From assembly GCA_043816965.1 (NCBI GenBank), contig JBDRHK010000007.1:1-10883 (forward strand): DNA of 10,883 nucleotides, read 5' to 3'. The notes below the pieces were generated by a model. The model ran no database searches. It was not told where the DNA came from and was given only the letters and a program-made list of their open reading frames with translations. The position numbers and the translations under genes are program-made. Source of the DNA: Candidatus Iainarchaeum sp. (GTDB taxonomy: Archaea > Iainarchaeota > Iainarchaeia > Iainarchaeales > JAFCCJ01). Shown one piece after another: positions 343-10,883 of this stretch (within the stretch, counting starts at the first letter, position 1; each line of letters starts with the position of its first letter).

Positions 343-3300
343 ATGAACTATGGGAAGTATATGAAGCACCAAAAAATTTTTTTAGTTTTGCTATTGTTTA
401 TGGCCTTGCTTGTGCTCAGCGGCTGCTATAATAATGTCCCTGTTTGCGGAAATGATATATGTGAGATAGGCGAGAATGCGGAAATCTGCCCAGTTGATTG
501 TGATTTTGAAGAAGACCCTCCCGGCAAAGAATGCTTGGTAGCAATGGACTGCGATGACAATGACAGATTCACAGATGACACATGTGAGGGCATGCCAAAA
601 ACCTGCAGAAACAGGCTAATGGCTTGTGGAGAGCTTGATGGAGTTATATGTGGATATGACTCAATTTGTGACAAGGATCTTGTGAATTCTGCTGACAGTG
701 GTAGATGTTGCCCCGGGAATTGCACATATGCGGATAAATGCTCAGCGGATTCTGATTGTGATGATAGCATAGTTTCCACTGAAGATATTTGCATAGGGGA
801 ACCAAAACAATGCATTAACCTTAACATAGAGGACTGCAGAACAGGGGATTCATACTGCCCGCCCAGCTGCAGCTATGGGAATGACAGTGACTGCCCAACA
901 GAGGACCAGTGCAATTATGATTCTGAATGCAATGATTATGATAATTCTACCAGAGATGCCTGTGTTGGAAACCCGAAAAGATGTATAAACACACTTAAAA
1001 CATGCGCCGAAAGGGAGGGTGATATCTGCACTGTTGATGAAAAATGCCTAGAATATTTTATGAGTTCTTTTGACAGCCAAAGGTGCTGTGCAGGCACATG
1101 CATCCTCGAATGCCTTAATGACAGTGAGTGCAATGACCAAAACCCCTCAACAAGAGACAGTTGTGAGGGCAACCCAAAAAGATGCTTCAACGAGACTATA
1201 ACTGAATGCAACAGCAATGATGATTTTTGCCCAAGCGGGTGCAGCTCCGAAAATGACAATGACTGCCCTGAGGGCTGTGATGGTGATGAATGCAATTATT
1301 GCCATAATTACTGCCAGGGAATTCTGGGAGATATTGATGGGGACGGGGTTATAACTGAGGAAGATTACCAACTCGCAATCGACATGTCTCTGGAAATAAT
1401 CGACCCCAATCCATGCGCAGACATTTCCCAGGACTGTGAAATAAATGTCATAGATGTACAGCAGATTGCAAACCTTGTCATAACCCAATCATATTGCTCT
1501 GATTTCAACACCATGTTCCTCGATTCCTGGCAAAAAAGCTGCGGGGATGCATCTTTCGATCCCAGGGCAGATGTTTCAAGCCCAGATGGAACTTCTGATG
1601 GAACTGTCGATGTTTGGGACTTTATGGTTTTCACAGACAATCACAACAATGAGCAATGGTGCGAACAGGCTTTGAATTCAACTAACAACATCTGTGGTCT
1701 CTGCCACACAAACTGCACAGGAAGGTTGGGGGATGTAACTGGCGATGGAATTATCACCCAGCAGGATGTTGACTGGATACAGGAGATGGCTGTTGATTTG
1801 AGGGAAAGGCAGGCATGTGCTGATTTAACAATGGACTGCGAGGTAAACACTGGAGACGCAATCCTGGCACTGCAGGCAATCCAGCGTTATGATTCAGCAA
1901 GTTGCACCAATACATCAATGAAGGGCGATTTAAACGAGGACGGACAAGTTACTGAAAGGGATGCCGCCACAATTCTGGCCATTGCTGTTGGCCTGGTTGC
2001 GGCGCCCTCAAACATCTGCTGTGCAGACATTAACGATGATGGCATGATTAATGCAGGCGATGGAATCCTTGCCCTACAGACAGTTGCTGGGACTAGGGCA
2101 ATTGAGTACTGTGCCACTTCCTCTTTTGAAGGAACTTACAAAGAAGGCGAAATCATTGCACATCTTGATGGTAAGTGCAATTATAATTTGGAGAAATTAA
2201 GTGTTAAACTTGATGCAATATCCCAATCAGGCCCGAATCAACCCTACAATGCTACCCTTTCCCTATATTCTTCCAATGGAACCAAAATCGACACCCAAAC
2301 TATCTCGGCAGGAGCAGACCTAAGCGAAATATTTGTAGACAATTATGGTGATTATCCACTCTTTTCAAGGGTAAGAGTAAGCACTATTACTGTCGGAGCA
2401 ACAACAGGAATCGGCGCTATAGAAGTTTTGGACTATGGAGATAATACAACTACGTGTAGCGCACCACCTCAACCAGATACCCAAACTTACAACGAAGGAG
2501 AAAGCATCACAAATCTTGATGGCATGTGCAACTATAATGGAGAATCACTCAAGGTGGTTGTTGAAGGAATACTGGATACAGGCAGCGGAGTCTACTCCGC
2601 AAGGTTTGCACTCTACCAGTCAGATGGAACCAAAATCGACACCCAAACTGTTTCCACTGGCACAGACCTAAGTCAGGTATTTATCGACAGCAGCGGTAAT
2701 TATACGCTCAAATCTAGAATCACAGTAGACACTATTGCAGTCAATGCAACAACCGTAACCGGCTATGTTGAAGTAACAGACAACGGCGACAGCACAGCCT
2801 CATGTGACGCTTCCCCACAACCGCAAATCCAAGTTTATTACGAAGGCGAAACCATTGCACAGCTTGATGGAATCTGTACTTATGAGGGGCAGAAGGTAAG
2901 CCTTAAACTTGATGGGATAACATCCTCAGGCCCAAACAACCCATATAGTGCAACCCTATCTTTGTACTCTGATACTGGGATTAAAATTGACACAAGATCA
3001 GTTGGCTCAGGAACTGACCTAAGTTTGGAATTTTATGATAATATTGGCGATCCGGCATTGAAATCAATAATTGTGGTTCAGTCAATAGGGGTTGGAGCAA
3101 CAACTGCTTTAGGATTTATTGAAGTAACCGATGAAGGGGACAGCCAATTAGGATGTTCAATTCCCTTGAATGACACAACAATTAAAATTGGAAGGGATGT
3201 TGAGGGTCTTGATTATATTGCAGAAGCAGGAGGCATTTCCTTCAGGGGGGCAGATGACACCCAGCACAACATACCTTTTTACCTCAAACCGACAAACAAT

Positions 3301-4281
3301 GGCTTTACCGGAGGAGCATTCCTTTTTGATGGCAGAACAATCTGGTATAAAATTGATGACGGAAGCTCATACATGAGCGACCTTAATATTACTCTACGGC
3401 CTGGCGATTATCTCAACGAAAACCTGATTTTGTATATCACATACACTGCCCCCAGCAATACAACAGTAACCAGTGGAATTGGCAGCCACAACATAGGCGC
3501 CAATAACACCATCACTATTGATGGAATCTCGTACATAGTTACTGGCGGAATATCGAATGGAAATAATGGCACAGTTTATTTGACGGCGGAGGGATATCTT
3601 GAATTAAGAATGTCCAACAGCACTGGAACTGTAATTTACAATCGGCAGGGAGATACATCTGATGAGTCATACGGAAAATTATACTTCAACCAGAATGAAG
3701 TTGTGGATTTAAGTTCAAACAGGAATATAGGCCTCAGGGGAAATGGCGATAGGAGATTCTATTATGCTTTCAAGTATGCGGGTGATTACAATGCAGCAGC
3801 TCAAGTTTACCTAATGCTGGATGCCGATAAAATGGGTGCAGATGAATCCAATCTTATCCAATATGGCAAAACTTTGGAATTCATGGGAACTGCAGTACCA
3901 AAACATGGAAACATCGGGGGCGAAAGCGAATACATTACACATACTAGCTTCATTCCAAAGGATTGGGATTTCAACACATCAAATATTTACACCGACCCTG
4001 CAGCATATTTCGTTGCGCAAGTAAAGGTTTCTGACCCTCAGGCTAACGGCGATATTACTGCATACATCAACACAGATGATGGAACTCTGCTTGGGCCATT
4101 CCCTAATTCAAATCTGTCTTACTACTATGGGGACCTTATATTCGATGGTGACCCATATTTCAGATTGCTAAGTGGTTCATTCAGTGGGTTCGCACAGGAA
4201 GCTGACACCTATTGGGGCGCTCACCTGAGGATTTACCCTGAAGAAAATGCAGCAATGGCTGAAATAATACTGCCTGAATGA
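343..4281 (+). CDS. Large modular cell-surface lipoprotein (Cys-rich repeats, dockerin-like Ca-binding modules, S-layer-like repeats); true start may be ATG 361
   Basis: 1312-aa ORF with signal peptide and lipobox (MKHQKIFLVLLLFMALLVLSG-C). It contains a CGNxICExGExxxxCPxDC motif, CxxDxD/ECD/NDxxxxTxDxC repeats, GDxxGDGxI/V...ADxxxDxxIN pairs, three ~116-aa repeats and an acidic Gly/Thr/Asn/Ser-rich C-terminus. Confidence 0.9.
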   Translation: MNYGKYMKHQKIFLVLLLFMALLVLSGCYNNVPVCGNDICEIGENAEICPVDCDFEEDPPGKECLVAMDCDDNDRFTDDTCEGMPKTCRNRLMACGELDGVICGYDSICDKDLVNSADSGRCCPGNCTYADKCSADSDCDDSIVSTEDICIGEPKQCINLNIEDCRTGDSYCPPSCSYGNDSDCPTEDQCNYDSECNDYDNSTRDACVGNPKRCINTLKTCAEREGDICTVDEKCLEYFMSSFDSQRCCAGTCILECLNDSECNDQNPSTRDSCEGNPKRCFNETITECNSNDDFCPSGCSSENDNDCPEGCDGDECNYCHNYCQGILGDIDGDGVITEEDYQLAIDMSLEIIDPNPCADISQDCEINVIDVQQIANLVITQSYCSDFNTMFLDSWQKSCGDASFDPRADVSSPDGTSDGTVDVWDFMVFTDNHNNEQWCEQALNSTNNICGLCHTNCTGRLGDVTGDGIITQQDVDWIQEMAVDLRERQACADLTMDCEVNTGDAILALQAIQRYDSASCTNTSMKGDLNEDGQVTERDAATILAIAVGLVAAPSNICCADINDDGMINAGDGILALQTVAGTRAIEYCATSSFEGTYKEGEIIAHLDGKCNYNLEKLSVKLDAISQSGPNQPYNATLSLYSSNGTKIDTQTISAGADLSEIFVDNYGDYPLFSRVRVSTITVGATTGIGAIEVLDYGDNTTTCSAPPQPDTQTYNEGESITNLDGMCNYNGESLKVVVEGILDTGSGVYSARFALYQSDGTKIDTQTVSTGTDLSQVFIDSSGNYTLKSRITVDTIAVNATTVTGYVEVTDNGDSTASCDASPQPQIQVYYEGETIAQLDGICTYEGQKVSLKLDGITSSGPNNPYSATLSLYSDTGIKIDTRSVGSGTDLSLEFYDNIGDPALKSIIVVQSIGVGATTALGFIEVTDEGDSQLGCSIPLNDTTIKIGRDVEGLDYIAEAGGISFRGADDTQHNIPFYLKPTNNGFTGGAFLFDGRTIWYKIDDGSSYMSDLNITLRPGDYLNENLILYITYTAPSNTTVTSGIGSHNIGANNTITIDGISYIVTGGISNGNNGTVYLTAEGYLELRMSNSTGTVIYNRQGDTSDESYGKLYFNQNEVVDLSSNRNIGLRGNGDRRFYYAFKYAGDYNAAAQVYLMLDADKMGADESNLIQYGKTLEFMGTAVPKHGNIGGESEYITHTSFIPKDWDFNTSNIYTDPAAYFVAQVKVSDPQANGDITAYINTDDGTLLGPFPNSNLSYYYGDLIFDGDPYFRLLSGSFSGFAQEADTYWGAHLRIYPEENAAMAEIILPE
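532..1269 (+). repeat. Intragenic Cys-rich tandem duplication (two units of about 120-126 aa, each with two CxxDxxCxDxxxxTxDxCxGxPKxC modules)
   Basis: Units start at 532 (CLVAMDCDDNDRFTDDTCEGMPKTC) and 910 (CNYDSECNDYDNSTRDACVGNPKRC), 378 nt apart. Both contain RCCxGxC and end in CPxxCSxxNDxDCP. Confidence 0.85.
1327..2085 (+). other. Dockerin type I-like domain cluster (three complete pairs plus one half-module)
   Basis: GDIDGDGVITEEDY..ADISQDCEINVID; GDVTGDGIITQQDV..ADLTMDCEVNTGD; GDLNEDGQVTERDA..ADINDDGMINAGD; single module ADVSSPDGTSDGTVDVWDF. Confidence 0.75.
2134..3159 (+). repeat. Three tandem ~116-aa intragenic repeats (S-layer-like beta domain)
   Basis: Each unit reads YxEGExIxxLDGxCxY...LYxxxGxKIDTxxI/VxxGxDLSxxFxDxxGxxxL...IxVxATTxxGxI/VEVxDxGD...C. 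Units start near 2134, 2485 and 2833, and a 26-nt identical block occurs at 2276-2301 and 2624-2649. Confidence 0.9.
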
Positions 4282-4286
4282 GATTG

Positions 4287-4308
4287 AATTGATGGCAAAT
4301 TGATGGCA
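4287..4308. repeat. Perfect 11-bp tandem repeat (AATTGATGGCA)2 in the intergenic region upstream of aspS
   Basis: Read directly at 4287-4297 and 4298-4308. Confidence 0.85.
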
Positions 4309-4357: not shown

Positions 4358-6136
4358 ATGGAGAGAACCCACAATTGCGGCGAATTGACCGGCAAAAACA
4401 CGGGAAAAGAGGCCATTCTCAATGGCTGGGTCTCAAACAGGAGAGACCATGGCGGGCTGATTTTCATTGATTTAAGGGACAGGTATGGGATTACCCAAAT
4501 CACATTTAACCCTGAAGTTTCAAAAGAATTGCATGAAAAGGCAGAGAAATTGCGTTCTGAGTTTGTTGTTGCAGTTAAGGGGAAAGTTAGCAAAAGGCCT
4601 AAAGGAACTGAAAACAAGAAAATTCCTACAGGGGAAATAGAGATCGTCGCAAAGGAACTGGAAATCATCTCCGAGGCAGAAACCCCTCCATTGGAGGTTG
4701 ATGAGCACATTAACGCAAATGAGGATTCAAGGCTGAAATGGAGATATTTGGACCTGCGAAGGCCATCAATGCAGAAGAATATTATTCTCCGCCACAAAAT
4801 GGTGAAGGCGGTAAGGGACTATTATGATTCAAGGGGATTTTTGGAAATTGAAACACCAATTCTTGCAAAATCAACGCCTGAGGGGGCAAGGGATTATCTC
4901 GTGCCTTCCAGAGTAAACCCAGGCAAATTCTTCGCCCTTCCCCAATCACCGCAGATTTTCAAGCAATTACTCATGGTCAGTGGTTTTGACAGATATATGC
5001 AGATTGTGAAATGCTTTCGCGATGAGGACCTAAGGGCGGATCGGCAGCCGGAATTCACACAGATAGATGTTGAGATGAGTTTTGTTGATGAAGAGGACAT
5101 TTACAAGGAACATGAGGGTCTAATGAAATATGTTTTTGAAAAGGTCTTCAAAATAAAACTTAAAACCCCTTTCCCGAGAATGAGCTGGCAAGAGGCGATG
5201 GACAAATATGGGATAGATAAACCTGACACAAGGTTTGGGATGGAAATTTTTAATTTGGATGATGAGGCAAAGGAAAGCGATTTCAATGTTTTCAAGGATG
5301 TTGTTGCAAAAGGGGGAAAAGTGAGAGGGATTTCAGTTCCCGAGGGAGGGGAATTCTCAAAAAAGGAACTGGAAGAATTAACCGAATTTGTAAAAGTGTA
5401 TAAGGCAAAAGGTTTAGCATGGATGAAGGTTGCAAAAGACGGAAAAGCGGAGGGAGGAATCTCAAAATTCTTTTCCGAGAAATTAATTAAAGATATTCTG
5501 AAAAAAATGGGTGCAAAGGAAAATGATTTATTGTTGTTTGTTGCCGATGACTGGAAAATTGTCTGCGACGCGCTTGGAAACCTCCGAAACCACCTCGCAA
5601 AAAAACTGAACCTTATTGACCAGAAAAAATACAATTTCCTCTGGGTTGTTGATTTTCCTATGTTTGAGTGGGATGAAGAGGACCAAAGGCCTAAGGCAAT
5701 GCACCATCCCTTCACTTCCCCGAGAAAGGAGGATTTGGAACTGCTGGAAAGTGAGCCCCTGAAAGTGAGAAGCAATGCGTATGATCTCACTTTGAACGGT
5801 GTTGAGCTGGGAGGGGGAAGCATCAGAATCCACAAAAAGGATTTGCAGAAGCGGGTATTCAAGGCAATGGGAATTTCTGATGAGGAGGCGGAAAACAAAT
5901 TCGGTTTTATGATGAATGCATTCCGGTATGGGGCCCCACCACACGGGGGAATCGCGTTCGGAATGGACAGGTTTGTTATGATAATGGCTGGCGCAGAGTC
6001 GATAAGGGATGTAATCGCATTCCCAAAGAACAAGGCCGCAGTTTCATTGATGGATGAATCCCCTAGTGAAGTGAATGAGAAACAATTGAAAGAGCTGCGC
6101 ATAAAACTGGATATTGAAAAGCCAGCCAAAGAATAG
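4358..6136 (+). CDS. aspS: Aspartate--tRNA ligase, bacterial-type, probably non-discriminating (Asp/Asn)
   Basis: 592 aa with OB-fold RRDHGGLIFIDLRD, motif 1 region STPEGARDYLVPSR, LPQSPQ, motif 2 FRDEDLRADRQPEFTQID, GAD insertion, HHPFT, ELGGGSIRIH and motif 3 GAPPHGGIAFGMDR. Confidence 0.98.
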   Translation: MERTHNCGELTGKNTGKEAILNGWVSNRRDHGGLIFIDLRDRYGITQITFNPEVSKELHEKAEKLRSEFVVAVKGKVSKRPKGTENKKIPTGEIEIVAKELEIISEAETPPLEVDEHINANEDSRLKWRYLDLRRPSMQKNIILRHKMVKAVRDYYDSRGFLEIETPILAKSTPEGARDYLVPSRVNPGKFFALPQSPQIFKQLLMVSGFDRYMQIVKCFRDEDLRADRQPEFTQIDVEMSFVDEEDIYKEHEGLMKYVFEKVFKIKLKTPFPRMSWQEAMDKYGIDKPDTRFGMEIFNLDDEAKESDFNVFKDVVAKGGKVRGISVPEGGEFSKKELEELTEFVKVYKAKGLAWMKVAKDGKAEGGISKFFSEKLIKDILKKMGAKENDLLLFVADDWKIVCDALGNLRNHLAKKLNLIDQKKYNFLWVVDFPMFEWDEEDQRPKAMHHPFTSPRKEDLELLESEPLKVRSNAYDLTLNGVELGGGSIRIHKKDLQKRVFKAMGISDEEAENKFGFMMNAFRYGAPPHGGIAFGMDRFVMIMAGAESIRDVIAFPKNKAAVSLMDESPSEVNEKQLKELRIKLDIEKPAKE

Positions 6137-7871: not shown

Positions 7872-8638
7872 ACACAAAAGAGGCAGCAGTAAACGCCGCG
7901 CTTAAAGCAGGGAAGATAATTATGGAATACTACCAAAAACCAAAAACAATTGAGCACAAGGGAATTATTGATTTGGTTACAGAGGCAGACAAGCTTTCTG
8001 AGAAGAAAATAATTTCAGAAATCAAGAAAGAATTTCCTGACCATGGTTTTGTCGGGGAAGAAGGGGAAGCAATAGAATCCAGCTCAGATTATAAATGGAT
8101 TATTGACCCAATTGATGGGACAACAAACTTTGCACACAACATACCTTTCTTCTGTGTTTCAATAGCCCTGCAGAAAAAGAATGAACTTATTTTAGGGGTA
8201 GTTTTAAATCCTGTGACCAATGATTTGTATGTTGCGGAGAAAGGGAGGTGGGCAACATTAAATAATAAAAAAATCAATGTTTCAAAAACCGACAAACTTA
8301 TTGATTCTATAATTGTTTTTGGATTTCCCTATGTCGGTGATGAGAAAATCCGCAAAATAATTGATGACCAGCATAAACTCCACGGTAAAATTCAGGCAGG
8401 CAGGAGGTTTGGCGCCGCGGCCCTTGACCTGTGTTATGTTGCCTCTGGTTTGGCAGAGGGATTTTATGAATACTCCCTTAAACCATGGGATGTTGCCGCT
8501 GGCTCCCTGATTGTGAAAGAGGCAGGGGGAAAGGTTACTGATTTTAGGGGAGATTCAAAAGAAATCGCAACCGATATTGTGGCCTCCAATGGGAAAATCC
8601 ACGGGCAATTGATGGAATTAATTGGTGAGAGGGAATGA
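7868..8638 (+). CDS. suhB: Inositol monophosphatase family protein (SuhB-like)
   Basis: DLVTEAD, GEEG, WIIDPIDGTTNFAH, GAAALDLCYVASG and PWDVAAG motifs; ATGA overlap with gatA. Confidence 0.93.
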   Translation: MNTKEAAVNAALKAGKIIMEYYQKPKTIEHKGIIDLVTEADKLSEKKIISEIKKEFPDHGFVGEEGEAIESSSDYKWIIDPIDGTTNFAHNIPFFCVSIALQKKNELILGVVLNPVTNDLYVAEKGRWATLNNKKINVSKTDKLIDSIIVFGFPYVGDEKIRKIIDDQHKLHGKIQAGRRFGAAALDLCYVASGLAEGFYEYSLKPWDVAAGSLIVKEAGGKVTDFRGDSKEIATDIVASNGKIHGQLMELIGERE

Positions 8639-9126
8639 GTAAGACCAAAAGAGCGCTAGGCTCAATTTTAAAACGTATTAGTAAAAAATTGCCTGAATCT
8701 AGTAGAATGCGAAATATAATTGATGACAGGAGATACATGTCTTCAAAAGAAATTGGAGACTCCCATTTTGTAAATTTGTTTTTACCTGAGAATGCAGGTT
8801 TAATGTTAAAGGTACAAAGAGAAATATTTAGCAAAGGTGGTTATTCATTCGAACAATTAGAGAAAGACCATCCAGAACTTGTTCAAAGGGCAACTGAGTT
8901 AGTGGCTAAATATTATATCGAGGGTGGGCGTAAATCACACGAAATTATTGAAGAAATGCAAAAAGAGGGAACTTCTCAGAATAGGAAGTCAGAATTAAAT
9001 AATGAATATCGCGAGGAATTCAATAGATTTATGGAGGAGTATCATAGGGCGCCAAGCCCCACATTATATGAATTATATTTGATATTAAGGAAGAAAGGGT
9101 TGAAAAATAAACCCATAATAGGGTAG
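8635..9126 (+). CDS. Hypothetical protein, 163 aa, charged and probably helical
   Basis: ATGA overlap with the upstream gene, preceded by GGTGAGAGGGA; no recognised motif. Confidence 0.7.
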   Translation: MSKTKRALGSILKRISKKLPESSRMRNIIDDRRYMSSKEIGDSHFVNLFLPENAGLMLKVQREIFSKGGYSFEQLEKDHPELVQRATELVAKYYIEGGRKSHEIIEEMQKEGTSQNRKSELNNEYREEFNRFMEEYHRAPSPTLYELYLILRKKGLKNKPIIG

Positions 9127-9127
9127 A

Positions 9128-9134
9128 TTTTTTT
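9128..9134 (+). terminator. Possible archaeal oligo(T) terminator
   Basis: T7 run starting 2 nt after the TAG at 9126. Confidence 0.35.
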
Positions 9135-9153
9135 GAGGTAATTGGTGAGAAAG

Positions 9154-9759
9154 ATGGGCCTTAGTGGTTGGATAGTTTGTCTAATTTCAAACTTTTTGAG
9201 TTGGTTAGTTAACATAGCAATAAATTTCTTCAATATACTAAAGAACCCTAAAGAAATGGCTAATTTGATAATACAATTTATTTTATTGGGCATAATCCTG
9301 TCAATAATTACCAGCACAGTAATTATTCCTGCGTTAACTCCAAAAACTAATATTGATGTTTACATAGATAAACAAAAAGACGAGTTTATTTCAGTAACTT
9401 TTTACAACAATGCTGATTTTGCAGGGGATGATTTTAAAATAGAATTTGATGGCTTAAATTACACATATTATTCATATGACGCATTTTCGCCAGCCACTCT
9501 TTGTAAAACAGATATGTTGAAAGCTAGTAAGACTCAGGAGTTCCTTATTGGTTTCCAAGTTCAATGTAACTACATTCCTCCAAAATCAAAAATAGTTCTT
9601 AAGTTCATACCACAAAAAATAATGTGGAACGTAGAAGAGCATCCAGATCGTGAAAACTTTTTCCATATAAATTATTGGAGTAAAACAACCCCTCAAACTA
9701 AACTGATTTGCAATAATGTGACTTTTGAATGTACTCAGAATCAATTTGATGCGAATTAG
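9154..9759 (+). CDS. Hypothetical membrane-anchored protein (start ATG 9154 or TTG 9142)
   Basis: Hydrophobic segments (WIVCLISNFLSWLVNIAINFF; LIIQFILLGIILSIITSTVIIPAL) precede a beta-like Cys-containing domain. GGTGA lies before ATG 9154. AT-rich (17/60 G+C counted at 9241-9300). Confidence 0.7.
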   Translation: MGLSGWIVCLISNFLSWLVNIAINFFNILKNPKEMANLIIQFILLGIILSIITSTVIIPALTPKTNIDVYIDKQKDEFISVTFYNNADFAGDDFKIEFDGLNYTYYSYDAFSPATLCKTDMLKASKTQEFLIGFQVQCNYIPPKSKIVLKFIPQKIMWNVEEHPDRENFFHINYWSKTTPQTKLICNNVTFECTQNQFDAN

Positions 9760-9770
9760 ATTTTCCCCCC

Positions 9771-9920
9771 ACCACCTCCAATCTTCGAATTTTTTCCTAC
9801 GACTGGGTGTTTCTCGGCTTAAATCTTTGCACGCCTAAATTCAGCCTACTGGTACAAAGAATTTAATGCCTCCAAACACCCTAACCGTCTTCAGAAAAAA
9901 TTCACTTTTTTGGAGGTGGT
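9771..9920. repeat. ~150-nt imperfect palindrome / rod-like hairpin (candidate structured RNA or ssDNA element)
   Basis: Nested complementary blocks: 9771-9781/9910-9920 (11 bp), 9787-9796/9894-9903 (10 bp), ACG/CGT, 9805-9812/9874-9881 (8 bp), GGC/GCC, TTAAAT/ATTTAA, CTTTG/CAAAG and AC/GT, giving 48 Watson-Crick pairs by hand. Confidence 0.9.
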
Positions 9921-9927
9921 TCGGTTG

Positions 9928-10062
9928 ATGAAAAATCAACTCAATATTCAACTTCCCACAAGGGAAGAGATTAGAATGGCTGAGGAATTGGCCCAAACAG
10001 ATCCAGAGAACTTAACAGATAGGGAACTCTGGATTCTGAGAGACATCGGAGGGGATTTCTGA
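9928..10062 (+). CDS. Small acidic protein or leader peptide, 44 aa (below the ORF-track cutoff)
   Basis: Strong SD GGAGGTG at 9912-9918; MKNQLNIQLPTREEIRMAEELAQTDPENLTDRELWILRDIGGDF*. Confidence 0.6.
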   Translation: MKNQLNIQLPTREEIRMAEELAQTDPENLTDRELWILRDIGGDF

Positions 10063-10082
10063 TGTTTCTCTTTTTCTTTTTT
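10038..10082 (+). terminator. Terminator-like hairpin plus T tract, overlapping the junction of the two small ORFs
   Basis: GAGAGACATCGGAG (10038-10051) pairs with TTCTGATGTTTCTC (10057-10070): 14 bp with three G-U pairs on the + strand. It is followed by TTTTTCTTTTTT. Confidence 0.5.
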
Positions 10083-10214
10083 GTCATCAATTACTTCTGC
10101 TTTGTTTCCGTGCTTCTTCTATTCACTTATGGATTCAAAGAACAATCCTACAAATTAGCGAAGTATCTGCTTGCGTTCTTTCTTGGAATGCTCGCTATGG
10201 AGTTGATTCTGTGA
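10062..10214 (+). CDS. Small hydrophobic peptide, 50 aa, two predicted membrane helices
   Basis: TGATG overlap with the 44-aa ORF and GGAGGGG at 10048-10054; MFLFFFFVINYFCFVSVLLLFTYGFKEQSYKLAKYLLAFFLGMLAMELIL*. Confidence 0.5.
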   Translation: MFLFFFFVINYFCFVSVLLLFTYGFKEQSYKLAKYLLAFFLGMLAMELIL

Positions 10215-10273
10215 GTTCTGGCACCGGAAGCCTACCCCCGAAACGAAATAAAAACGCGGAAAACTCATTTATT

Positions 10274-10485
10274 ATGAATAATATGGATTTGGATTATTTG
10301 CAAGACAAGATTAAAAAGAACCCAGTAAGCCCCATTGACTTTCATTCCTTTTCATTTCTAATGAAAGACTTGAACTTAATTGAGGGCAAAGAAGCAATCA
10401 CTTTCCTATACTCCTTATACTGTTTATTTACAAAGAAGAAGATTGAAGGAATCAATAAGGGTTTTGTTTACCATTTCGCAAAAGA
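10274..10485 (+). pseudogene. Hypothetical gene interrupted by the IS66 element
   Basis: The frame from ATG 10274/10283 (MNNMDLDYLQDKIKK...GFVYHFAKE) has no stop before the IS terminus at 10486. The last residues of track ORF 10211-10528 are read-through into the IS. Confidence 0.55.
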
Positions 10486-10497
10486 GTATCTGCTAAC
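10486..10497 (+). repeat. IS terminal inverted repeat (IRR), GTATCTGCTAAC
   Basis: Exact inverted match to 294-305; contains the transposase TAG stop. Confidence 0.9.
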
Positions 10498-10883
10498 AAC
10501 TTATGGCTGTTTTGAGGGTCTGGAATAGGGGTTTTTCTTGTTGTTTCCAGGTGGCAAGCATCGTGTTCACGATGCCCATTGTGTCCGCCCCGTGCTCCGC
10601 CCGCAGCCCGCCTATTATTTTGCGCTGAACTATCAGCTCGCGGAGTGCGCGTTCCGCCCTGTTGTTTGTTGGCTCAACAAATAAGTGTTCAATGCAGGTA
10701 AACCATGCATTCAAGCCGTTGCCTAGTTTGATTGCAAGCCCTCTGAACAGATTGTGCGATTCAAGCACATCAATGAGTTCCTGCATACGCTGTTCAAGGC
10801 CTTGTTTGAGTTGCAGCCGCTTTTTTAATGGCGGCGGTTTTTGCTGAATGCGTTTTATCTGCGAGAACATGCGCTTGAGTTTT
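10493..10883 (-). CDS. IS66-family transposase, C-terminal fragment (partial, open beyond the window end)
   Basis: VEPTNNRAERALRELIVQRKIIGGLR...TMLATWKQQ is the IS66 DDE C-terminal PxNNxAERxLR motif. The frame stays open upstream of Met 10870 (KLKR). Confidence 0.93.
   Translation of the reverse strand, partial: KLKRMFSQIKRIQQKPPPLKKRLQLKQGLEQRMQELIDVLESHNLFRGLAIKLGNGLNAWFTCIEHLFVEPTNNRAERALRELIVQRKIIGGLRAEHGADTMGIVNTMLATWKQQEKPLFQTLKTAISC

Follow-up and report, generated by a model that had tools for sequence, protein, structure and literature searches.

A covarying leader hairpin and two small genes at the head of a mobile archaeal cassette: a probable translational relay

What does a long inverted repeat do directly in front of two very small, overlapping open reading frames (ORFs) in an archaeal genome? 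The question is raised by a stretch of 10,883 nucleotides (nt) from Candidatus Iainarchaeum sp. (contig JBDRHK010000007.1 of assembly GCA_043816965.1), referred to at its full length as the window. A reading of the letters alone (the sequence-only reading) had proposed that positions 9771 to 10214 hold a stand-alone, RNA-regulated small-protein module with the logic of a type I toxin-antitoxin locus. The module does not stand alone. Comparison with 151 genomes from the same archaeal order, many of them incomplete, places it as the leader of a cassette of ~1.3-1.5 kb that usually contains a LAGLIDADG gene. On balance, the stretch is probably the 5' control module of this mobile cassette, which would be specific to one order of DPANN archaea, would normally carry a gene of the LAGLIDADG homing-endonuclease type and would work as a translational relay. 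The loci compared are mutual relatives and hence non-independent. G000 denotes the genome of the window (1.34 Mb) and G001 another genome of the same genus. The parts of the module are the following.

9771..9920, plus strand: long imperfect hairpin (leader RNA) of ~150 nt and five helices, from the minimum-free-energy (MFE) fold and covariation
9771..9781, plus strand: 5' arm of the outer stem, ACCACCTCCAA, a mimic of the anti-Shine-Dalgarno sequence, 100% complementary to 9910-9920
9787..9796, plus strand: invariant stem arm GAATTTTTTC with a T6 run, pairing with 9894-9903
9912..9919, plus strand: Shine-Dalgarno (SD) sequence of ORF1, GGAGGTGG, in the 3' arm of the outer stem, as seen in the sequence itself
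9922..9940, plus strand: small stem-loop over the ORF1 start codon, in this copy only, from the MFE fold (9922-9928 against 9934-9940)
9928..10062, plus strand: ORF1, 44 amino acids (aa), acidic two-helix small protein, leader ORF of type A (ATG start at 9928, stop at 10060-10062)
10038..10070, plus strand: second hairpin, masking the ORF2 SD and the TGATG start (14-base-pair (bp) stem, 10038-10051 against 10057-10070)
10062..10214, plus strand: ORF2, 50 aa, hydrophobic two-helix peptide, whose ATG overlaps the ORF1 stop as TGATG
10211..10244, plus strand: GTG start overlapping the ORF2 stop (GTGA, 10211-10214), then a conserved motif, from sequence comparison

As envisaged, the relay would begin with the 150-nt hairpin, in which the anti-SD mimic pairs with the strong SD of ORF1, so that transcripts reading through from the upstream host gene would stay untranslated. 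The ORF1 stop overlaps the next start, the region of which would itself be folded into a local stem, and the next gene (the optional ORF2, or otherwise the nuclease gene directly) would be translatable only by ribosomes fresh from ORF1. The arrangement would be repeated at the junction with the nuclease gene, where the conserved nucleotide motif would form part of the stem. The hairpin would probably be bypassed through a promoter in its 3' half, as in the nuclease genes of phage T4, and the nuclease gene may also have a leaderless promoter of its own.

The evidence for the hairpin comes from folding and from covariation. The MFE of 9755-9945 is -61.5 kcal/mol (z score -7.75), and none of 200 shuffled sequences was equally stable. 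The sequence-only reading had claimed that the hairpin pairs the SD of the 44-aa ORF, and this is borne out, since the outer stem (9771-9781/9910-9920) covaries across loci; the pairing probability of the ORF1 SD is at least 0.9 in 37 of 44 loci. The ATG of ORF1 was also said to lie in a stem. That stem is present here (9922-9928/9934-9940) but is specific to this copy and not conserved, as the start codon is paired at a probability of at least 0.9 in just five of 44 loci. A covariance model was built from the eight copies in G000, the RNAalifold consensus of which has 50 pairs, five with compensatory changes. In an alignment of 39 loci fitted to this model, which favours the structure, 96.8% of the cells are standard pairs and 25 of the 50 pairs are changed on both sides, a result matched by 0 of 500 column shuffles; sliding the partner columns of the same alignment gives 36-56% pairing and 4-9 pairs changed on both sides. 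The compensatory changes are visible in a plain MAFFT alignment too. Helix 1, the outer stem, has such changes at nine of its 11 pairs across the 39 loci, the most of all helices. Seven of the ten pairs of helix 2 are without any variation in 38-39 loci. Two stems, GAAUUUUUUC/GAAAAAAUUC and the apical UUAAA/UUUAA, are invariant while neighbouring pairs covary, and they are therefore under constraints beyond pairing. Archaeal RNA polymerase stops at oligo-T, and the T6 run in the 5' arm could thus act as an oligo-T terminator of host transcripts.

The hairpin matches no family in Rfam 15; across the window, Rfam yields just one match at E<=1, a weak and unrelated one to sR4 at 4697-4741 (19.7 bits, where the gathering score is 50). 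The covariance model finds it in 56 of the 151 genomes, with up to nine per genome, and it is thus a widespread, strongly covarying structured RNA of one archaeal order that is absent from RNA family libraries. It occurs in all 16 genomes of one family, in 12 of 16 of another and in none of 16 of a third. The sample holds 119 distinct hairpin places at 59 bits or more, plus 14 weaker ones; G000 has eight copies versus one in G001. Several candidate identities were rejected. A known RNA or a transfer RNA (tRNA) is countered by the lack of an Rfam match and of any tRNA in the region. The inverted repeat is always accompanied by ORFs and its copies are 72-82% alike, not near-identical, which speaks against a miniature inverted-repeat transposable element. 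A bulge-helix-bulge intron was dropped by eye on the consensus structure, the internal loops of which lack two 3-nt bulges across a 4-bp helix.

Both ORF1 and ORF2 are genes under purifying selection. The conservation of the two peptides had been a point to check for the sequence-only reading, and both are conserved. For ORF1, the proportion of nonsynonymous differences (pN) is below that of synonymous differences (pS) in 91 of 91 pairs, which are non-independent, with a median ratio of nonsynonymous to synonymous rates (dN/dS) of 0.29. For ORF2, pN is below pS in 65 of 66 pairs, and the orthologues in G000 and G001 differ by a dN of 0.088 and a dS of 0.841. In the ORF list made for the window, ORF1 begins with a TTG at 9910 and has 50 aa. 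A profile of 21 ORF1 sequences retrieved 88 cluster representatives (E<=1e-3) among 1.84 billion proteins, nearly all of 34-92 aa; three long matches look spurious. The AlphaFold2 model of ORF1 is a two-helix hairpin (helices 12-24 and 31-39; predicted local distance difference test (pLDDT) score 82). ORF1 has no match in Pfam or NCBIfam, and a fold search against the PDB returned nothing at E<=0.001. Behind the same hairpin at other loci stands a second kind of leader ORF (type B, 32-34 aa), which has no profile similarity to type A (hhalign probability 0.3%). Codons 8-13 of ORF1 (conserved P-T/S-R-E-E; 9951-9966) are self-complementary, and in the folds of this and other copies they make up a 6-bp stem.

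ORF2 was described earlier as a hydrophobic two-helix peptide coupled to ORF1 by TGATG, a description that stands: the overlap is in the sequence, and the AlphaFold2 model has helices at 3-22 and 26-49 (mean pLDDT 88). Its 12 intact versions have 47-52 codons. ORF2 matches nothing in Pfam or NCBIfam, Hok/Gef included (the best hit is ECF_trnsprt, with 15 bits where the cut-off is 30.7), and its best score in the ESM Atlas, 0.83, is below a meaningful level. A profile search of 5.8 billion predicted proteins found just seven relatives, none with a Pfam domain, showing that gene callers mostly miss ORFs of this type. One of the seven is named Candidatus Diapherotrites by its source; the DNA is archaeal, as had been thought probable. 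Among the 151 genomes there are 14 ORF2 matches at E<=1e-4, of which 12 sit 110-260 nt downstream of a hairpin, one belongs to a cassette whose hairpin has decayed and one is solitary. Three weaker matches are likewise behind hairpins. The expected synteny of peptides and hairpin is thus found from the side of ORF2; seen from the other side it fails, as the hairpin and ORF1 mostly occur without ORF2, which is present at ~15 of at least 119 hairpin loci. In G000, ORF2 is intact in two copies (the window and C26), fused by a deletion in C66 and reduced to 30 codons in C15b. It is found with both types of leader ORF and with unrelated downstream genes, and is therefore a separable module.

Some ORF2 relatives lie in unusual surroundings. 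In one cassette (L095; G017:C1:490816-493965, ~1170-1650) the long hairpin and the start of ORF1 have been replaced or have decayed; the 3' part of ORF1, an intact ORF2, the motif and a downstream ORF of 310 aa are retained. Weakly similar two-helix peptides occur outside cassettes at L079 (G027:C42) and L082 (G077:C29), with E values of 2e-6 and 1e-4. One of these has its own promoter-like box and one an in-frame TAA. The cassette peptide may be derived from a host small-protein family.

The start of ORF2 is masked in its turn. The sequence-only reading had seen its SD and ATG buried in a stem, and the 14-bp stem indeed covers part of the SD plus TGATG. The masking of the SD recurs in the other loci: in MFE folds of -45 to +35 around the ORF2 start, the SD is paired in all 12 ORF2-bearing loci (probability 0.51-1.00). 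These stems have z scores of -2 or lower in nine of the 12, and their arm sequence and register vary between loci. As a control, 90 ordinary overlapping gene junctions of G000 have a median z score of 0.18, with 3% at -2 or lower. Median SD pairing is 0.86 in the cassettes versus 0.53 in the control junctions, a difference that rank tests overstate because the 12 cassette loci are related. The 5' arm of the second stem lies within the last codons of ORF1, so that a terminating ribosome would open the stem.

The junction with the third gene has a similar build. In the loci inspected, the stop codon of ORF2 (or of ORF1 where ORF2 is lacking) overlaps a start codon, as ATGA, GTGA, TTGA or TGATG. 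The motif that follows reads CACCGGAAG at 10222-10230 in the window and extends to GAAAC at 10240-10244. It is present in 44 of 45 loci and is read in three frames across them; it is therefore conserved at the nucleotide level. Copies without ORF2 have their stop/start overlap covered by a ~10-bp stem, to which the motif contributes the 3' arm. The frame is open from the motif into a long ORF in 35 of 44 loci, with the window counted among the closed frames because an IS66 element cuts its ORF.

Transcription within the cassette bears on how the hairpin might be bypassed. Upstream of the long ORFs of G000, TATA-like hexamers peak sharply at 28-31 nt from the ATG, which points to leaderless messenger RNAs, and a promoter weight matrix was made from the upstream regions of 108 leaderless genes of this genome. 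A scan of 9700-10330 gave two matches on the plus strand and none on the minus strand, and one of these falls within the hairpin.

9854..9875, plus strand: promoter-like site in the 3' half of the hairpin (hexamer TTTAAT at 9862-9867, score 8.3)

The site at 9862 scores in the top 0.09% of all genome positions, and a promoter-like match lies at the equivalent place of the hairpin in 40 of 45 loci. No conserved promoter was seen upstream of the hairpin, nor did the crude matrix find a conserved minus-strand promoter-like site opposite ORF1 or ORF2 in the 45 loci. Transcripts begun ~29 nt downstream of the 9862 site (~9890-9895) would lack the masking arm. Beyond the motif, 21 of 45 loci have a TATA-like hexamer that is followed by an ATG at a distance of 27-31 nt, which agrees with the genome's own peak and suggests a separate candidate leaderless promoter for the nuclease gene.

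The unit that this module heads is variably present. Homology between the eight copies in G000 (the window and seven others, 72-82% identity) begins ~10 nt before the hairpin, the flanks being unrelated, and the cassettes lie ~10-20 nt after host stop codons. Each of the seven other copies continues with an ORF of 273-377 aa, in which LAGLIDADG_3 is at or above the Pfam cut-off in five, weak in one and missing in one. At 31 loci in relatives, the downstream ORF has LAGLIDADG_3 at the cut-off in 16 and at E<=0.01 in 19. Two copies (C25 and C5) are missing from the syntenic places in G001; the unit from hairpin to nuclease gene is therefore mobile, or at least variably present. The C25 copy (L057, G000:C25) adjoins the 3' end of an intron-bearing tRNA gene and is bracketed by an 11-nt near-repeat (~2990-3012 and ~4270-4290), which consists of the letters directly beyond the 3' end of the tRNA gene (G001:C73, ~49500-49530). 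The C5 copy is a 1.45-kb insertion that replaces ~60 nt before the gene for methionyl-tRNA synthetase. Several cassette flanks resemble the ends of tRNA genes, and no recombinase lies within the cassette in the loci read. Another copy, C15a (L059, G000:C15:54700-61200), separates the two halves of a gene whose C-terminal end is an intein-like block.

In the window, the cassette is dead at its 3' end through an IS66 insertion, with ORF1 and ORF2 intact. Two features describe this end.

10274..10486, plus strand: third cassette gene, occupying the nuclease position and sharing the frame of the GTG at 10211; the first 71 codons remain
10480..10883, minus strand: end of an IS66-family element that truncates the cassette, from a shared repeat and a transposase match

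The first clear ATG of the third gene is at 10274, ~27 nt after an A/T-rich box at 10246-10254. Its sole homologue among the 151 genomes (40% identity) is itself truncated and lies behind a hairpin, ORF1 and ORF2 in G068. From 10480/10486 onward the DNA is 98-100% identical to six other contigs, and the ORF at 10493..10882 matches the IS66 transposase model NF033517 (E 1.1e-18), under the curated cut-off as it is partial.

Several points weigh against a translational relay in a nuclease cassette. The wobble counts (30 G-U versus 26 A-C cells) leave the folding strand of the long hairpin undecided, and in the window copy the fold of the minus strand is more stable still (-74.3 kcal/mol). Pair registers of the second stem differ between loci, which precludes a covariation test on fixed columns; this hairpin was assessed instead by folding each locus and by the genome control. 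The promoter matrix, with an A/T hexamer as its dominant feature, is weak evidence. In relatives, 12 of the 31 downstream ORFs have no LAGLIDADG match in Pfam, and the third gene of the window is without family assignment, with no match in Pfam or NCBIfam and no longer relatives found. One of the two insertion junctions examined, C5, has no target duplication. The block on translation, the coupling and the transcript starts are inferred from the anatomy of the locus.

Could the cassette instead be held in place by a toxin? ORF2 might be a membrane toxin and an RNA (antisense or the hairpin itself) its antidote, in a type I-like addiction module that stabilises the cassette. A selfish element would profit from addiction, and ORF2 is a conserved two-helix hydrophobic peptide of 47-52 aa under purifying selection. 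It would be gated twice, by the long hairpin acting on ORF1 and by its own SD stem, which fits the mok-to-hok logic described in PMC9841398. The hok/mok/Sok analogy of the sequence-only reading survives in this respect, in the sequestration of the SD and in the mok-to-hok-like anatomy of the coupling. Other points speak against a module of this type. The peptide is optional, with ~15 occurrences at the hairpin loci and, in G000, two intact and two decayed among the eight copies; since it is present at so few of these loci, the regulatory RNA is not dedicated to it. ORF2 matches neither Hok/Gef nor any other Pfam or NCBIfam family, and the 45 loci scanned with the crude matrix have no conserved opposite-strand promoter-like site. 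Moreover, the decayed copies in C66 and C15b persist without loss of the cassette, and ORF2-like peptides exist outside cassettes as well. An addiction module is therefore unlikely, and it is just as unlikely that ORF2 would prove to be a membrane toxin behind two RNA gates and a leader ORF, as an archaeal counterpart, on selfish nuclease cassettes, of the post-segregational killers of the hok/mok type.

Two further explanations concern the inverted repeat itself. The hairpin may be mainly a transcriptional device, namely a two-way terminator or insulator (T6 on either strand) with an internal promoter, the SD pairing being a side effect of the palindrome. Consistent with this, the stems GAATTTTTTC/GAAAAAATTC and TTAAA/TTTAA are invariant amid covarying pairs, the cassettes lie just past host stop codons and the promoter-like match within the hairpin recurs in most loci. 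However, the stem that contains the SD is the richest in compensatory changes (nine of 11 pairs), as expected if SD pairing is selected. A mainly transcriptional role is also improbable, and transcriptional and SD-masking functions are compatible with each other. Alternatively, the repeat may act as DNA, either as a folded site for recombination or recognition where the cassette begins on its left side (compare integron attC and the ends of IS200/IS605) or as a binding site of the nuclease. The hairpin starts ~10 nt from the cassette border, both strands fold well and the wobble counts favour neither. Yet its 3' arm is in every copy a perfect SD, correctly spaced from a conserved and selected ORF, its sequence is strongly conserved, unlike that of attC sites, and the cassettes read contain no recombinase. 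A role as DNA is accordingly very improbable. The translational relay remains the explanation that is preferred.

The surroundings of the cassette were also compared. The region between the stop of a 205-aa ORF (9759) and the IS66 end (~10480) consists of the hairpin, ORF1, ORF2, the GTG and motif, and the third ORF. Synteny of the window with G001 stops at 8638. The two ORFs at 8639-9759 encode 163 aa and 205 aa, the latter with an N-terminal membrane segment, and neither has a family match. This segment has a GC content of 0.31-0.37 versus ~0.43 elsewhere and no counterpart at the syntenic place in G001; together with the cassette and the insertion sequence (IS), it looks like a variable island. 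IS66-family pieces on the minus strand lie at both ends of the contig (1-312 and 10480-10883), the left one comprising the N-terminal 79 aa of the element and the right one the C-terminal 129 aa. Since these end repeats are common to several other contigs, the contig is a unique stretch between two IS copies. At 343-4281 is a secreted-looking protein of 1312 aa with repeated cysteine-rich modules, dockerin/EF-hand-like GD..GDG..I motifs and three internal repeats of ~110 aa; it has no NCBIfam match.

In the literature as represented by titles and the beginnings of abstracts, with subscription journals outside this coverage, no description of the element was found. Masking of the start sites of selfish nuclease genes is a known kind of control; what is new is the membrane peptide and the relay. 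The smallest archaeal genomes may hold such genes silent within host operons by a relay of masked starts and not by a single hairpin. The locus would also be a concrete example of translation controlled through the SD and coupled between genes in DPANN archaea, whose genes appear for the most part to be leaderless, and it adds two new conserved small-protein families, one of them a membrane peptide that appears to be under unusually tight control. A type I-like toxin system is not known to have been demonstrated in archaea; should the peptide turn out to be toxic, RNA-gated toxin logic would be extended to them.

The closest known parallels are found in phage. As described in PMC2988022, the genes for I-TevI, I-TevII, I-TevIII and segB of phage T4 and mobE of Aeh1 have a ribosome-binding site that a hairpin hides when transcripts read through from upstream; the site is proposed to be free on transcripts that start at a promoter within the structure, and I-TevI represses its own promoter. 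Compared with leaders of this type, as set out there, the archaeal element likewise belongs to a selfish nuclease gene embedded in host transcription units, with a stable RNA structure that hides the SD on read-through transcripts (here predicted). A promoter is again proposed within the structure (here as a promoter-like match in 40 of 45 loci), and a possible operator adjoins the candidate nuclease promoter. A gene of a homing-endonuclease family also lies downstream, as holds for the cassette family, the copy in the window being cut after 71 codons. The differences are several. The host is an archaeon and not a phage, and the structure, of ~150 nt and five helices, shows sequence conservation across families. 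The SD that is masked is that of the small ORF1, the nuclease gene being reached via one or two overlapping stop/start junctions that are masked in their turn, and the nuclease is of the LAGLIDADG and not of the GIY-YIG or HNH type; moreover, the archaeal element is known from its sequence alone.

In hok/mok/Sok of plasmid R1, according to PMC9841398, the SD of the leader ORF is sequestered and translation of the membrane peptide depends on the leader. The archaeal element shares the long-range pairing that sequesters the SD of a leader ORF (here from the fold, from covariation and from 37 of 44 loci), the placing of the leader before a membrane peptide of ~50 aa and the occurrence of several copies per genome. 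The stop/start overlap and the anatomy of the SD stem would fit a dependence of the peptide on its leader. In contrast to hok/mok/Sok, no antisense RNA gene is evident here, the ORFs of leader and peptide overlap by just 1-4 nt, the peptide, which has two helices, is not similar to Hok, and it is optional where hairpin and leader are constant; the module is also part of a nuclease cassette. The element is thus a member of neither family, and resembles the T4 nuclease leaders, and partly hok/mok, in its logic.

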